Shown piece after piece: positions 53,215 through 63,932 of a stretch of DNA of 64,000 nucleotides (position 1 is the first letter of the stretch; each line of letters starts with the position of its first letter). The position numbers and the translations under genes are program-made. The notes under the pieces are model-generated. The model saw only the letters and a list, made by a program, of their open reading frames with translations. It was not told the DNA's origin and did not search any database. This DNA is from Escherichia coli (GTDB lineage: Bacteria > Pseudomonadota > Gammaproteobacteria > Enterobacterales > Enterobacteriaceae), in assembly GCF_011045215.1 (NCBI RefSeq), contig NZ_CP049201.1; one strand, 5' to 3'.

Positions 53215-54693
53215 TTACGCATTCGACCAGCTCTGGATCGAATCCGCATTTCCCAATTCCCCATGCATCACTTCATACGATTTTTTCAGAATCACATCAG
53301 TATGTTTGGTTAGGTCTTTGAAAATGCCTTTATTCATCGCGTCGTAGCGTTTGGCATTGCTCTCAATCGGTATAAAGATATCTTTCACGCGAACCATTTT
53401 ATCGACAGCCGTTGCGTAATCCGGGTATAGCCCCAGACCTACCGCGGTATTAATCGCTGCCCCCAGACTTGCACAACCGTTAATGGCGTTACGGCGTGCC
53501 GGAAGGTTGAACACGTCGGCAAAAATTTGCATAAACAGATCGCTGTTCGAACCGCCGCCAGTAATGATCACATGCTTTGCAAAGTGATTCATTTCATTAC
53601 ACATATTGTCGTAATTGTTCTTCAGCGTCAGCGCCACGCTTTCCAGTATCGAACGATATATCCATGCGTAATCCATGCTGGAATCAAAGCCGATCATAAT
53701 CCCACGTTTGTAGGGTTCCCACGGGTTGGTCAGCCAGTCCAGCACCGTCATCAGACCATTACAGCCAGGCGGCACACAAGAAGCTTTTTTGTTGAGCAAA
53801 TCTTCCGGTGAAAGATCCTGTGCTTTGGCATCCTGAATTAACGACTCGCCTAACATGTCGCGCAGCCAGCTCACCGTCCACATGCCTTTGCGAATACCGT
53901 AACCTTCATACAGCAATGTTTGCGGAATAGAAGACATAATCGGCCAGTACGCCACCGGATCTTTCGGCAAGGCTTTGCCATTCATCATCAGCGCGATATA
54001 AGTACCGAGTGAAATCACCGCCGTTTCATCATCCAGTAATCCGGCCCCCAGAGCTTCTACCGGTTTATCACTGGTGGTACAAACAACCGGCAGCCCTGCC
54101 GGGAAATGTGTCGCCAGCGCGGCTTGAGGTGTGATCTGTCCAAGAACAGTGCCTGGCATTTGCACATCAAACAGCATATGACGGGGGATATTAAACTTCT
54201 CCATGACTGCGGCATCTTCACTCCATGCCCAGCTCTTATAATCCACCGGCCACTGACCAAAATAGTTGGCGATATTGTCTTTAAACTCGCCGGTTAAGCG
54301 ATGCGTCAGATAACCCGAAAAAGAGGTGACATATGCCACGTCAGGATTAGTGTGTTCGTAGGGACGCGTTACGCGTGCATCCTGCCAGCTAATCAATGGC
54401 GCAGCTGGCGTGCCATCGGCTTTCAATAACGCACGGCAGCAACGGATGGATCCCAGACCAATACCGACAATATCTTCTTTATTCCCGGCAAACTGACTCA
54501 TCAAATCGTGACCGGCAAAACATAATGATGCCCATAAATCGTCGTCAGGATGTTCTGCAGTATCGGCATCTGGCGTGTGCATCGGCTGCAATAAGCCTTT
54601 ACCTTCGCAAACCACATTACCTTCCAGATCGTACATCACCACTTTTGTGCTCTGACTTCCGCCATCAATCCCTATGATGTATTTTTTCGACAT
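53215..54693 (-). CDS. ygcE: FGGY-family carbohydrate kinase YgcE (492 aa)
   Basis: 492-aa ORF; FGGY kinase N-terminus (IIGIDGGSQSTKVVMYD); synteny next to CRISPR. Confidence 0.88.
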   Translation of the reverse strand: MSKKYIIGIDGGSQSTKVVMYDLEGNVVCEGKGLLQPMHTPDADTAEHPDDDLWASLCFAGHDLMSQFAGNKEDIVGIGLGSIRCCRALLKADGTPAAPLISWQDARVTRPYEHTNPDVAYVTSFSGYLTHRLTGEFKDNIANYFGQWPVDYKSWAWSEDAAVMEKFNIPRHMLFDVQMPGTVLGQITPQAALATHFPAGLPVVCTTSDKPVEALGAGLLDDETAVISLGTYIALMMNGKALPKDPVAYWPIMSSIPQTLLYEGYGIRKGMWTVSWLRDMLGESLIQDAKAQDLSPEDLLNKKASCVPPGCNGLMTVLDWLTNPWEPYKRGIMIGFDSSMDYAWIYRSILESVALTLKNNYDNMCNEMNHFAKHVIITGGGSNSDLFMQIFADVFNLPARRNAINGCASLGAAINTAVGLGLYPDYATAVDKMVRVKDIFIPIESNAKRYDAMNKGIFKDLTKHTDVILKKSYEVMHGELGNADSIQSWSNA

Positions 54694-54719
54694 GATTTTT
54701 CTCCTGTAATTTTCCTGGC

Positions 54720-55997
54720 TTACTTGCTGCTAGCCATTGCGGGGGCGCTATCAGCAGTACGAATTTTTTGGAACAGCAAAAAGGTAAAGACAATCACCAT
54801 GGCAAGCGCCGCCATGCCCATCAGCCACATATTGCGGTAGGCTTCTGCTGCGGGCAGGGTGTCTTGCCAGTGGCCGATAATTGGGTAAACGAAGACATCC
54901 GGCAGGAATCCTATCACCGAACAAATACCTACCGTGGTGCCCATAATGTAAGACGGTGTTCTCGCTTCGCCAGGGCAGGCCCAGTACAGCCCGCGTGAGG
55001 CGTAACATGTGAATCCCAGCAGTAAAATCAGGCCAATCCCCATCGCGACCGATTGCGGGTTAGAGTTCGTGACGAGCAGGGCAGTTAACGCCAGCAGGCC
55101 GAGTACGGAAAGGATTTGGATCACGCGGGTAGGGGATTTCACTTTGCTGTAGGTGGTGATTATGCCGCCAAGTGGGCCGCACAGCGCGCGGAAGATTTTG
55201 TTGATCACAATCCCCATGTAGCTCGCCGCCACCAGCGACATGCCGTACATTTCGGTCAGATAGTTGGTGGAGTAACTCAGAATGGCGTAGATGGTGAAGA
55301 CACCAAAAATCACCATGCTGCAATACCAGGTGGTACTGATACGCAAAACGGCCAGGATATCGCTAAGCTGGAATGACTGTTTTTCTTCGTTATTGGCACT
55401 GCGCAGGTTGTTGTTATCGCTAACAAAAAACCAGCACAGAAGCCCCAACAAGATGTAAACCACACTGTAGATGATAATGACCGTTTTCAGGCTGGCGCTG
55501 TCATCCGGTGCAAAGCGAGAAAAGACCCACATGGTAAACACCGCCAGCGACATTACACCGACGCCGCGCAGCCCTTCCATCCAGCCCATAATTTTCCCTT
55601 GCTCGCTATGATCGCCAAGCAACGATGCGGCTTTAATCGACACCGACCACAGCATTAAAATCGTTGTTATCGCAAAGGCGACCTGAATACAGAGCATTAC
55701 CCACAGCGGTGGATACGTTGCCATTAACAGACCCAGTAATCCGGTAATGATCATCGCGGAAGTAATCATTTTGCGGTGTGAAAATTTATCGGCAATAACG
55801 CCGCTGGGGGCATAAAGAATAATAGCCGCAATACCAAAGGTACTCATTATTAAACCTATCTCGGTATTGCTGAATCCCATAAATTTCGCCATGGGAATTT
55901 GATAAATATAACGTAAATAAGCCAGGTCGAAACTAACGCCGCCGCTAAAACTAATTATCGCGAGGGTTATCCAACGGCGATATGAGTTGTGTTGCAT
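54720..55997 (-). CDS. yqcE: MFS transporter YqcE (425 aa)
   Basis: 425-aa polytopic membrane ORF; synteny. Confidence 0.87.
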   Translation of the reverse strand: MQHNSYRRWITLAIISFSGGVSFDLAYLRYIYQIPMAKFMGFSNTEIGLIMSTFGIAAIILYAPSGVIADKFSHRKMITSAMIITGLLGLLMATYPPLWVMLCIQVAFAITTILMLWSVSIKAASLLGDHSEQGKIMGWMEGLRGVGVMSLAVFTMWVFSRFAPDDSASLKTVIIIYSVVYILLGLLCWFFVSDNNNLRSANNEEKQSFQLSDILAVLRISTTWYCSMVIFGVFTIYAILSYSTNYLTEMYGMSLVAASYMGIVINKIFRALCGPLGGIITTYSKVKSPTRVIQILSVLGLLALTALLVTNSNPQSVAMGIGLILLLGFTCYASRGLYWACPGEARTPSYIMGTTVGICSVIGFLPDVFVYPIIGHWQDTLPAAEAYRNMWLMGMAALAMVIVFTFLLFQKIRTADSAPAMASSK

Positions 55998-62393: not shown

Positions 62394-62409
62394 AAATTAT
62401 CCTTATTAT

Positions 62410-62670
62410 TTATCCAAAGCGGTAGGTGATGCCGAATCCGGAAGGCGGATAGCGCCACTGTTGTAGTGTTGATTCGTCGCACAGCAAACGGCAGGTGCCA
62501 CACTCCAGGCAACTGCGATAGTCAATACGTAAGTCACCTTCCGGTGTGAGCGAAAAAAGACCTGCCGGACAGGCGTTAATCAACCGTTCTGCCGTCTGGC
62601 GCTCAACGGAGTCAGCCGGAACAATGTGCGGCGCATCAGCAACGCGCCAGAGATTACGGGCTACAGACAT
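62410..62670 (-). CDS. ygcO: Ferredoxin-like protein YgcO (FixX-like, 86 aa)
   Basis: Cys-rich (CPAGLF...CLECGTCRLLC); likely start MSVARNLW; track ORF extended to 62706. Confidence 0.8.
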   Translation of the reverse strand: MSVARNLWRVADAPHIVPADSVERQTAERLINACPAGLFSLTPEGDLRIDYRSCLECGTCRLLCDESTLQQWRYPPSGFGITYRFG

Positions 62671-63932
62671 CGCAGACTCCTGATAACATCGCCCGCCAGA
62701 TGCCACAGGCCGTGACGACGTAAATGACGCCAGAATAACTGGCGCAGCGGTGGAACAGGTTTATCACCCTGATCCCATAAATCGCGGGAAATATCCTGCA
62801 TTAACGCAGGCCACGCCCGATACCAGCCAGGGCGTTGCAAAAGCGCCGGAACATGCTGATAACGTTGTAGAACATCCCACAGCAGGCTGCGCTCGACGTT
62901 GTGATGATAAAGCGCAAACAGATTTTGCGGCTCGCGGTGCTGGCAGGCGCTTATCAGCGTTTGTGCCGCCGCCTGTGCGCCAGTCAGCGCCATATCCATG
63001 CCGCGCACGGAAATTCCGGTATTGACGCAACTGCGTAACGCATCGCCCACCAGCAGCCAGCCGTTACCGGCGTATTGTACCGGCATACTGTGCAAGCCAC
63101 CTTCTGGCACCAGATGCGCACCATACTCCAGTGATTCCGTGTTTTTGATAAGCGGGCGAACTGCCGGATGCGTTTTAAAGCGAGCCAGCAGCTCGCTTGC
63201 CGGAACACGACTTTGCGTAAGGGAAGAGAGCGGGCAAACAATCCCTAACGAGAGCGTTTGTTGATTAGTATAAAGAAATGCGCCGCCGGGTAAGTCATCA
63301 CAGATCCCGCCGCTGAACAGCAACGCTGCGCCTTCGTTATTCTCCAGATGAAAACGTTCTTCAATAGCGGATGTTTCCAGCGACAGCACTTCTTTGATCC
63401 CCAACGCCATCGCTTCGCCAGCAGGACGAGTCACTAACCCGTGACGTTCAGCCAGGACGCTGTTGGCACCTTCTGCCAGCACCACATAACGGGCGCGGAG
63501 AATATCGTCACCACAAATGACACCACACACCCTGCCGTTTTCTTCATACAGTGCATCCACCGTCGCACCAGGGATGCATTCGACACCTTCTTTTTCGGCT
63601 TCGGCAACCAGCCACGGATCGAACCGTGCACGTAATACACTCCAGGATTCACCGCCGGGCTGTAAGCTGGAAAACGTCGTTGCGCCATTCGGCGTTAACA
63701 GGGAAAGGCTTTCGTGAGTGATGCGTCGTTCAAGAGGCGCGGTCAGATGAAATTGCGGGAGGAGTTCCGCGAGTGCATGGGTATATAACCGCCCGCCGGA
63801 AAGATTTTTGCTGCCGGGGATTTCAGCTCGTTCCAGTAACAAAACGGATAAACCCGCTCGCGCGCAGCGTAACGCGCAAGCGGTGCCTGCAATACCGGCA
63901 CCAATAATAATAATGTCGCAGTCGTCTTCCAT
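62661..63932 (-). CDS. ygcN: FAD-dependent oxidoreductase YgcN (FixC-like, 423 aa)
   Basis: DIIIIGAGIAG dinucleotide-binding motif; start chosen at MEDDCDIIIIGAG; track ORF extended to 63962. Confidence 0.85.
   Translation of the reverse strand: MEDDCDIIIIGAGIAGTACALRCARAGLSVLLLERAEIPGSKNLSGGRLYTHALAELLPQFHLTAPLERRITHESLSLLTPNGATTFSSLQPGGESWSVLRARFDPWLVAEAEKEGVECIPGATVDALYEENGRVCGVICGDDILRARYVVLAEGANSVLAERHGLVTRPAGEAMALGIKEVLSLETSAIEERFHLENNEGAALLFSGGICDDLPGGAFLYTNQQTLSLGIVCPLSSLTQSRVPASELLARFKTHPAVRPLIKNTESLEYGAHLVPEGGLHSMPVQYAGNGWLLVGDALRSCVNTGISVRGMDMALTGAQAAAQTLISACQHREPQNLFALYHHNVERSLLWDVLQRYQHVPALLQRPGWYRAWPALMQDISRDLWDQGDKPVPPLRQLFWRHLRRHGLWHLAGDVIRSLRCL

Follow-up and report, generated by a model that had tools for sequence, protein, structure and literature searches.

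Twin terminator leaders and a GlpP-family protein suggest an inducible catabolic unit in the ygc cluster of Escherichia coli

Introduction

The leader of Bacillus subtilis glpD, on which GlpP acts together with glycerol-3-phosphate, carries in its 5' untranslated region the element GGUC-CUGAGAUGAGGAGA-GACC, after which comes a terminator with a 5' arm starting at GAGACC (PMC9604022). An element of similar layout is found twice in the ygc cluster of Escherichia coli, a set of ten open reading frames (ORFs) at positions 53215–63932 of the window (the whole 64,000-nt stretch of contig NZ_CP049201.1, assembly GCF_011045215.1, that was analysed), which also encodes a GlpP-family protein, YgcP. Other described systems that bear comparison with this locus are the BglG, SacY and LicT antiterminators with their RAT elements, the ether-lipid enzyme alkyl-dihydroxyacetonephosphate synthase (AGPS, EC 2.5.1.26), and two kinds of system built around electron-transfer flavoproteins (ETFs), FixABCX/YdiQRST and LctD-LctBC.

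The ten genes themselves are known y-genes and not new. Their names, order and strands are those of the best-matching E. coli genome in RefSeq and of K-12 MG1655, to which the window is here 98.7% and 97.3% identical, respectively, and queE and queD flank the cluster (RefSeq annotation). The operon ygcWUSRQ (+) is convergent with ygcNOP (−) and divergent from yqcE-ygcE (−). At a query coverage of at least 80% the cluster is present in 5060 of 5426 complete E. coli genomes (about 93%); some 360 of the 5426 have neither the leader described below nor most of the cluster. Families were assigned by hidden Markov model (HMM; NCBIfam) and PDB searches, in which every NCBIfam match fell under the curated equivalog cut-off; since no ygc protein reaches such a threshold, function cannot be transferred by this route. 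A preliminary description of this DNA had given the same gene content, order, strands and families, had taken the cluster for a conserved catabolic one in K-12 and had found it without an assigned substrate, and in all these respects the ORFs, RefSeq, K-12, the genome counts and the HMM and PDB searches bear it out. No substrate was found in the literature under the ten gene names and b-numbers. Reports that turned up concern a 1.7-fold induction of ygcU by D-serine, with no phenotype of a ygcU deletion in that setting, and an increase in nicotinamide mononucleotide production from nicotinamide on overexpression of YgcS, which says little about its native substrate; a mention of "ygcO" in a review of the PTS-Ntr system is a misprint for ycgO and hence not a report on ygc.

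We propose here that ygc is an inducible catabolic unit, controlled jointly by the cAMP receptor protein (CRP) and by leaders gated by YgcP, in which an onium substrate would undergo AGPS-like cleavage. We put the probability of this reading at roughly 0.55.

Results and discussion

Two divergent leaders with mutually exclusive folds

Both divergent operons begin with a matching leader of about 65 nt, placed directly 3' of the promoter. In the ygcW leader (56225–56298, +; 85.9 bits on the covariance model R1 described below) a terminator scan located a 19-bp stem at 56243–56284, with eight G-C pairs, followed by a U10 tract ending at 56294; the terminator ends 23 nt 5' of the ygcW ATG. The leader folds at −45.4 kcal/mol with a z-score of −5.1. 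A second and shorter helix, P1, is formed by pairing of 56227–56233 with 56249–56255, and closes the conserved loop AGAGAUAAUGAGAAA. The element recurs in front of yqcE-ygcE. In the yqcE leader (56022–56086, −; 76.7 bits on R1; fold z-score −3.8) the terminator stem runs from 56069 to 56030 and is followed by a U8 tract (56029–56022), while the 5' segment AUUACU (56083–56078) is complementary to AGUAAU (56063–56058), which overlaps the terminator stem. The two layouts are accordingly CAGUUACC-AGAGAUAAUGAGAAA-GGUAAC for ygcW and CAAUUACU-AGAGACCUGAGAAA-AGUAAU for yqcE, and the purine-rich P1 loop follows the consensus AGAGAYNAUGAGAAA. In both leaders the outer two of these segments are complementary, and the 3' one opens the terminator 5' arm, so that P1 and the terminator, which share it, make up a mutually exclusive pair of antiterminator and terminator. 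The terminators (−34.7 and −22.3 kcal/mol) are energetically favoured over the nascent P1 helices (−6.7 and −1.4 kcal/mol, respectively), from which it follows that a protein would be needed to hold P1. An Rfam search of 51000–64000, at E-values up to 1, gave three sub-threshold chance matches, none of them at the leaders. A hairpin UUAUCUC...GAGAUAA, which appears in the minimum-energy fold of 56195–56320, was rejected as a candidate structure because orthologues do not conserve the hairpin and its 5' half precedes the transcription start.

Two short RNAs from K-12 coincide with these leaders. Romero et al. 2014 (PMC4681348) catalogued ecr2774, of 73 nt, from the ygcW strand of the spacer, and ecr2775, of 63 nt, from the yqcE strand, the latter validated by northern blotting and varying in abundance with the medium. 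The 5' ends of the two RNAs lie 139 nt from each other and the motif starts in K-12 141 nt, which places each transcript start 1 nt 5' of its motif, at window positions 56225 and 56086, the K-12 coordinate offset between sequence versions having been inferred and not checked read by read. The lengths of the two RNAs equal the distance from the start to the end of the U tract. On our reading, ecr2774 and ecr2775 are the two leaders as terminated under non-inducing conditions.

Divergent CRP-dependent promoters

The spacer between yqcE and ygcW is 319 bp long and holds two CRP sites. Site 1 (56176–56191) is the perfect palindrome TGTGAttacgaTCACA, with the site sequence TGTGATTACGATCACA; its centre at 56183.5 lies at −41.5 from the ygcW start. 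Site 2 (56119–56134, TGTGAgagtaaTCACg), which differs from the pattern by one mismatch, is centred on 56126.5, at about −40.5 from the yqcE start, so that both occupy class II positions. The pattern scan gave six matches in the whole window against 1.8 expected. The other one-mismatch CRP-like sites lie at 14878–14893, 20048–20063, 20088–20103 and 29066–29081, the second and third being 40 bp apart.

Each promoter has an extended −10 box. That of ygcW, TGcTAAAAA (56210–56218, +), predicts a start at about 56225, in agreement with the 5' end of ecr2774, and is kept as TGYTAAAAA in orthologous leaders; that of yqcE, TGtTATTTA (56092–56100, −), predicts a start at about 56086/56085, in agreement with the RNA-seq 5' end of ecr2775. 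Site 1 is also predicted by PhyloScan, occurs with identical sequence in a CRP peak from chromatin immunoprecipitation sequencing of enterotoxigenic E. coli (PMC4287617), and binds CRP in vitro with a Kd of about 1.7 nM by footprint sequencing (PMC12871828); activation of yqcE-ygcE by Crp has been reported too (PMC8085971). cAMP-CRP binds both spacer sites and activates two divergent class II promoters with extended −10 boxes.

Conservation of the leader and its tie to YgcP

For comparison, a YgcU scan with one genome taken per species yielded 67 loci, whose genes were mapped by tblastn; look-ups that started from homologues of YgcP extended this set by Vibrio, Photobacterium, Sporomusa, Anaeromicrobium and a further genome. 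Exact-protein look-ups for the YgcU of locus L057 and for P0090 returned no match. Across 82 distinct aligned leaders P1 is 93.6% paired, as against 14–53% in slid controls, and three of its pairs show compensatory changes (GC in 50 and AU in 31; UA in 55 and CG in 23; and AU/GC). This covariation persisted, with further compensatory pairs, when the copies from Firmicutes and Vibrio were added. The lower terminator stem is likewise 93.6% paired, six of its pairs having changed on both sides. The covariance model R1 made 114 matches at E < 1e-3 in 1.3 Mb, all of them at leader positions or beside ygc genes. E. coli genomes have two motif places each, none of them annotated.

The distribution of the motif outside Enterobacterales follows that of ygcP: it occurs in all ten loci that have the gene and in none of the seven that lack it. 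The latter are five from Bacilli, each with an RpiR-family regulator, the others being from Desulfobacterales and Spirochaeta. In Firmicutes, Negativicutes and Vibrionaceae the motif sits between a −10-like box and the first gene of an operon, and the copies outside Enterobacterales keep the −10-like box, P1 and the terminator.

YgcP compared with GlpP and other antiterminators

The gene ygcP (61818–62393, −) encodes a member of the GlpP family PF04309, an assignment precomputed on a cluster representative 99% identical to the YgcP of the window. Its PDB matches are Listeria GlpP, 3kts (1.2e-27, 30% identity), and 1vkf (8e-15), and it keeps the phosphate-binding motifs of the barrel, IAGGL and STTN. 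With 30% identity to canonical GlpP against 51–63% to the ygc-linked copies of Firmicutes, YgcP forms a separate subfamily. Several E. coli and Shigella records (P0053, P0058, P0068, P0071 and P0093) have shortened ygcP products of 131–180 amino acids, which points to a decaying regulator in some lineages.

Like the B. subtilis targets of GlpP (glpD, glpFK and glpTQ), the two ygc operons carry a short element in the 5' untranslated region directly after the promoter, and like the glpD leader this element has a purine-rich GAGAU...GAG(A/G)A loop and a short helix whose 3' half starts the terminator 5' arm. As in the GlpP system, the FGGY-family kinase of the pathway itself would be expected to produce the inducer. 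The helix is a different one, ARUUACY/RGUAAY in place of GGUC/GACC, and the controlled genes are not glpFK, glpD or glpTQ; no glp genes were present in any of the examined ygc-type loci. Unlike that of B. subtilis, moreover, the ygc switch is found in Gram-negative bacteria and combined with class II CRP promoters. With the RAT systems of BglG, SacY and LicT it has in common a weak 5' hairpin that overlaps a strong terminator, the need for a protein, and a short terminated leader as the default product; unlike those proteins, YgcP has neither a CAT nor a PRD domain and belongs to an unrelated family, the RNA sequence is different, and the proposed signal is a small-molecule ligand instead of phosphorylation by the phosphotransferase system (PTS). 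By analogy with GlpP, YgcP is proposed to be a ligand-dependent RNA-binding antiterminator. That YgcP might act in this way at the ygcW leader had been suggested in the preliminary description, and the terminator, the covarying helix and the co-occurrence with ygcP fit the suggestion very well, as far as sequence can tell.

The conserved enzymes YgcE, YgcW and YgcU

By tblastn a core is recognisable across phyla, consisting of YgcW (62–76% identity), YgcU (54–72%) and YgcE (44–58%), often with YgcP (39–55%). It extends to Bacilli, Clostridia-like Firmicutes, Desulfobacterales and Spirochaeta, and the full ten-gene cluster is found in many Enterobacterales. The FGGY-family kinase YgcE is encoded by the second gene of the yqcE-ygcE operon (53215–54693, −); its best NCBIfam models are XylB (142 bits, cut-off 380) and LsrK, its best PDB match is LsrK 5ya0, and it probably makes the phosphorylated inducer. 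YgcW (56317–57102, +) is a short-chain dehydrogenase/reductase (SDR) resembling KduD and gluconate 5-dehydrogenase, with 350.7 bits on NF005390 (cut-off 369) and a PDB match to 4z9y (1.9e-58).

The flavin enzyme YgcU (57172–58626, +) bears an active-site signature of AGPS. Its homologues have the Pfam domains FAD_binding_4 and FAD-oxidase_C, and its best PDB matches are the AGPS entries 4bby and 2uuu (2e-40). Arg262, the Tyr of NMYFVY and His438–440 of YgcU, which are invariant in 21 orthologues, align with R419, Y578 and H615–617 of AGPS, positions marked there by the PDB mutants 4bc7 and 4bca. In AGPS these residues enolise a derivative of dihydroxyacetone phosphate (DHAP), so that the flavin can displace the C1 substituent; the two further enzyme types that ether-lipid metabolism employs on 1-substituted glycerol-3-phosphate or DHAP are an SDR and a kinase of the glycerol-kinase family. 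Where glycolate oxidase 9qgz has GEHGVG, YgcU has HHHG[IV]G, and the Glu-His motif, which in the cap domain of GlcD, LctD and LDHD we take to be metal-binding, is not present.

Just as AGPS is accompanied by alkyl-DHAP reductase and alkylglycerol kinase, the conserved partners of YgcU are an SDR and a glycerol-kinase-family kinase. The likeness has its limits. YgcU has 484 amino acids against 584–658 in AGPS, and the alignment begins only at AGPS residue ~193–215, the N-terminal region being without a counterpart. In place of a lipid-metabolism context, the ygc genes have as partners carriers of water-soluble, betaine-type solutes and a sugar-type kinase, and unlike the setting of AGPS theirs is catabolic and CRP-dependent. 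AGPS, finally, is redox-neutral, whereas the ETF genes that adjoin ygcU suggest a net redox turnover.

Transporters and the class of substrate

The two carriers of E. coli belong to the major facilitator superfamily (MFS). YqcE (54720–55997, −) falls between the anion:cation symporter and organophosphate-antiporter families, with weak NCBIfam matches to TIGR00893 and TIGR00881, and YgcS (58648–60057, +) matches TIGR00895, TIGR00879 and TIGR00898, the last of these the organic-cation transporter family. As to the start of ygcS, K-12 uses the equivalent of 58720 and RefSeq in other strains the longer ORF of 469 amino acids; between ygcU and the K-12 start lies a 9-bp G+C-rich hairpin (58668–58689, +; CGGCUUCUC-AGGC-GAGAAGCCG), which falls within the N-terminal extension of the longer ORF.

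In other phyla carriers of a different kind stand directly behind the motif, namely BCCT genes in loci L065, L073 and L076 and ProX/OpuC-type ABC operons in L060 and L068, and BCCT or OpuAC genes lie inside the clusters of L072, L075 and L077. A Desulfobacterales locus has an AgcS carrier. The ABC binding protein of L060 is closest to ProX of A. fulgidus and appears from the alignment to keep most of what we take to be the betaine-binding residues. The OpuC-type ABC operon of L053, which has no motif and adjoins a proline-racemase-like gene, was not counted as part of the regulon. Because BCCT and ProX-type carriers stand under the motif in these phyla, the substrate is probably betaine-like, that is onium or zwitterionic, and possibly derived from glycerol. 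The match of E. coli YgcS to the organic-cation family points the same way. An onium compound ending in a glycerol-like group would be compatible with the kinase and the SDR, with an enzyme like AGPS and with a sensor of glycerol-3-phosphate type. The carriers and the AGPS signature of YgcU weaken the sugar, polyol or sugar acid put forward in the preliminary description.

Some loci are organised differently. In Enterococcus canis (L067, 6576–12358) the order is motif, a GldA-type glycerol dehydrogenase, ygcP, a second motif, ygcE, ygcU and a gene for a 290-amino-acid multi-pass membrane protein without an NCBIfam match; the locus has no SDR and no known transporter family. The Bacilli loci L057, L058, L060–L063 and L068 have a regulator of the RpiR/SIS family 3' of the kinase gene and, ~100–150 nt upstream of the ygcW homologue, repeated GAAAATTTTC-like palindromes that are probably its operators. 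L060 and L068 have this regulator alongside YgcP, whose motif there precedes only the ABC transporter operon.

An accessory electron outlet

Two neighbouring genes, ygcR (60035–60814, +) and ygcQ (60811–61671, +), encode divergent relatives of EtfB and EtfA. As ygcS overlaps ygcR by 23 nt and ygcR overlaps ygcQ by 4 nt, the ETF genes belong to the ygcWU operon. On ETF models the two proteins score 34–76 bits (45–76 bits where the cut-offs are 240–600), the ETF-beta matches of YgcR not exceeding 45 bits; the FixA model gives 34 bits (cut-off 219) and the FixB model 62 bits (cut-off 549). YgcQ matches human ETF-alpha 1efv (8e-23) and keeps the Arg of the flavin adenine dinucleotide (FAD) domain, and has Ala-Leu in place of the Gln-His of GISGAIQH in the FAD site of EtfA. 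The convergent operon contributes ygcN (62661–63932, −), a FixC/YdiS-like FAD oxidoreductase and putative ETF:quinone oxidoreductase (383.5 bits on NF007450, cut-off 466; 367 bits on FixC, cut-off 610), and ygcO (62410–62670, −), a FixX-like ferredoxin (81.9 bits on NF011993, cut-off 166), the two genes overlapping by 10 nt.

EtfB and EtfA genes stand beside ygcU homologues in L052, L053, L065, L072, L073 and L075–L077. The arrangement is found in anaerobes, Vibrionaceae and enterics; FixCX adjoins the cluster only in Enterobacterales. Both modules are missing from the neighbourhood of the core in Erwinia, Pantoea, Izhakiella and Serratia proteamaculans/S. quinivorans, in the unclassified Enterobacterales locus L039 and in aerobic Bacilli. 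Their absence from so many loci that keep the core marks YgcR/Q and YgcN/O as an accessory electron outlet. YgcN and YgcO are clear relatives of FixC and FixX, and YgcR/Q belong to the same ETF superfamily as the corresponding subunits of FixABCX and YdiQRST, from which they differ in scoring far under FixA and FixB. As in LctD-LctBC, a FAD_binding_4 oxidase is encoded beside EtfB and EtfA; unlike the complexes of LctBCD type, YgcQ has no ferredoxin domain and YgcU no Glu-His of the LctD/GlcD type. The preliminary description had seen here an electron-bifurcating type of system. With YgcR/Q so divergent, the Gln-His of YgcQ replaced and the module dispensable, nothing indicates bifurcation.

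Anaerobe and Photobacterium loci encode a second oxidase, of GlcD/LctD type with the motif SE[YH]G (L065 13233–16789, L073 14954–16495, L075 14803–18207, L076 from 20099, and L052 10146–11433). In L065 and L075 the oxidase gene precedes those of a dedicated EtfB and of an EtfA with a ferredoxin domain, an LctBCD-like module that lies within the ygc-type cluster.

Alternative readings

The distribution of the motif bears first on whether the leaders act on the genes behind them at all. It could be held that they are trans-acting small RNAs, as which ecr2774 and ecr2775 are indeed catalogued, or constitutive attenuators, that YgcP is an enzyme, as its GlpP-family barrel fold is typical of enzymes, and that the ETF/FixCX genes are unrelated neighbours of the kinase, SDR and oxidase genes; the absence of the motif from ygcNOP, and of ETF and FixCX from many loci, would agree with this. 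Such a view appears improbable, given that the motif always follows a −10-like box and leads into the gene that opens a ygc operon, that outside Enterobacterales it accompanies ygcP in ten loci of ten and is absent from all seven without ygcP, that its layout matches a proven GlpP target, and that the gene overlaps from ygcS to ygcQ place the ETF genes in the ygcWU operon. The identity of YgcU is a separate matter. Its FAD domain matches GlcD, LctD, LDHD and D2HGDH, EtfB/A adjoin ygcU in many loci and YqcE is nearest to the anion:cation symporter family, all of which might suggest that YgcU with YgcR/Q is a D-2-hydroxy-acid dehydrogenase coupled to ETF, comparable to LctBCD or to LDHD/D2HGDH with ETF and ETF:quinone oxidoreductase, and oxidises a free or phosphorylated sugar acid. 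We regard this as quite unlikely, for all 21 YgcU orthologues have HHH instead of Glu-His, together with the Arg and Tyr of AGPS, and the separate GlcD-type oxidase with SE[YH]G that anaerobes encode alongside YgcU implies that the two are not equivalent.

Catabolism of a small polyol or ketose deserves more attention. Uptake would be by the MFS carriers and phosphorylation by YgcE, YgcU would pass electrons to ETF and quinone after the manner of GlpD or EryB, YgcW would carry out a second redox step or an epimerisation, and YgcP would sense the polyol phosphate. An FGGY kinase, a KduD-like SDR, a YgcS resembling sugar porters, CRP control and a GlpP-like regulator are all in keeping with this, and the glycerol dehydrogenase that replaces the SDR in E. 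canis and the RpiR/SIS regulator of Bacilli, of a type that usually senses phosphosugars, make it a serious rival. We consider it possible, while giving it a distinctly minor share of belief: in six independent lineages the carriers directly behind the motif are of BCCT or ProX/OpuC type, which are not known for neutral polyols, the Arg/Tyr/HHH set that YgcU shares with AGPS is unlike known polyol-phosphate dehydrogenases, and the core is not accompanied by any conserved isomerase or aldolase.

Several observations weigh against the proposal of a YgcP-gated unit that cleaves an onium substrate. AGPS is redox-neutral, whereas the ETF genes beside ygcU suggest a net oxidation; the E. coli carriers are of the MFS and not BCCT; and the GldA-type dehydrogenase in place of the SDR in E. 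canis, like the RpiR regulator of Bacilli, fits a small polyol as well. The basis for the suggested chemistry is a set of three conserved residue positions together with the families of the transporters. As to the regulation, ygcP is not itself preceded by a leader and may share a transcript with queD, the P1 pair 8–25 is broken in four leaders and the pair 2–31 is absent from the yqcE type, and the GlpP fold has no classical RNA-binding domain, B. subtilis GlpP being to our knowledge the only member to have been studied. Many leaders in the comparison are close relatives of one another, and the two leader types are paralogues. Part of the covariation therefore goes back to a few changes passed on repeatedly, so that the counts exceed the independent events, and the copies from other phyla are the stronger evidence.

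Proposed mechanism

In the proposed unit each leader by default ends at its strong intrinsic terminator, giving rise to ecr2774 and ecr2775. The first 7–8 nt can pair with the start of the terminator 5' arm to form the weak hairpin P1, which YgcP, carrying a phosphorylated intermediate of the pathway, would bind and hold, thereby blocking the terminator and allowing yqcE-ygcE and ygcWUSRQ to be transcribed, in parallel with GlpP and glycerol-3-phosphate on the B. subtilis glpD leader. Because YgcE, encoded together with YqcE, would make the phospho-inducer, the circuit would contain a positive feedback.

On the most parsimonious scheme, breakdown of the substrate would begin with phosphorylation to an ester resembling glycerol-3-phosphate. 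YgcW would then oxidise the neighbouring secondary alcohol to a ketone, yielding an analogue of DHAP, which the Tyr/His/Arg machinery of YgcU would enolise so as to cleave the substituent on the α-carbon. This would yield DHAP, or else an oxidised C3 phosphate, together with the freed head group. Where turnover of YgcU is a net oxidation, electrons might pass to YgcR/Q as the ETF and, in enterobacteria, on to YgcN/O as ETF:quinone oxidoreductase. Conceivable substrates are a deacylated betaine lipid, another C1-substituted glycerol, or a carnitine- or choline-like hydroxy compound. It is tempting to go further and to see in ygc a second specificity class of GlpP-type control, the first characterised in Gram-negative bacteria, joined to a degradative, AGPS-like cleavage of a C1-X bond in a water-soluble onium glycerol, for which the backbone of a betaine-lipid head group, S-glyceryl-cysteine or a dihydroxypropyl-trimethylammonium compound are candidates; this more specific version is put forward tentatively and must be called doubtful. 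A search of the literature found no description of a bacterial pathway combining AGPS, FGGY, BCCT and ETF components, or of betaine-lipid head-group catabolism.

Boundaries of the convergent operon

The stop codon of queD and the start of ygcN are separated by 77 nt (window 63933–64000; L001 16718–16794), in which neither a terminator nor the ygc leader motif was seen; ygcNOP may be read through from queD or may have a weak promoter of its own. The co-regulation of the cluster assumed in the preliminary description thus holds for the two divergent operons, both behind leaders, and not evidently for ygcNOP, which has no leader and lies directly 3' of queD. In the 146-bp gap between ygcQ and ygcP there is a weak match to the REP-derived family naRNA4 at 61719–61791 (−), with 29.4 bits against a gathering score of 59.5 (E 0.06), which is probably a REP/BIME element serving as the boundary between the convergent operons.

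Conclusions

What appears to be undescribed is the paired leader switch together with its cross-phylum link to YgcP, the nature of ecr2774 and ecr2775 as terminated leaders, the division into core and accessory genes, the AGPS-type signature of YgcU and the association with betaine-type carriers. The ygc cluster is among the larger gene blocks of E. coli K-12 without a function, and the presence of a leader terminator on both operons turns an open-ended search for its substrate into a simple screen: a presumably ligand-gated leader fused to a reporter, under high cAMP-CRP, should respond only to the true substrate. Antitermination of GlpP type would be extended beyond glycerol and beyond Gram-positive bacteria, with a defined RNA motif for the family. 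If the reading of YgcU is true, the flavin chemistry of ether-lipid synthesis would be used here to break a bond at C1 of DHAP, and the pathway would be relevant to the turnover of betaine-type solutes and lipid head groups in gut, plant and marine habitats.

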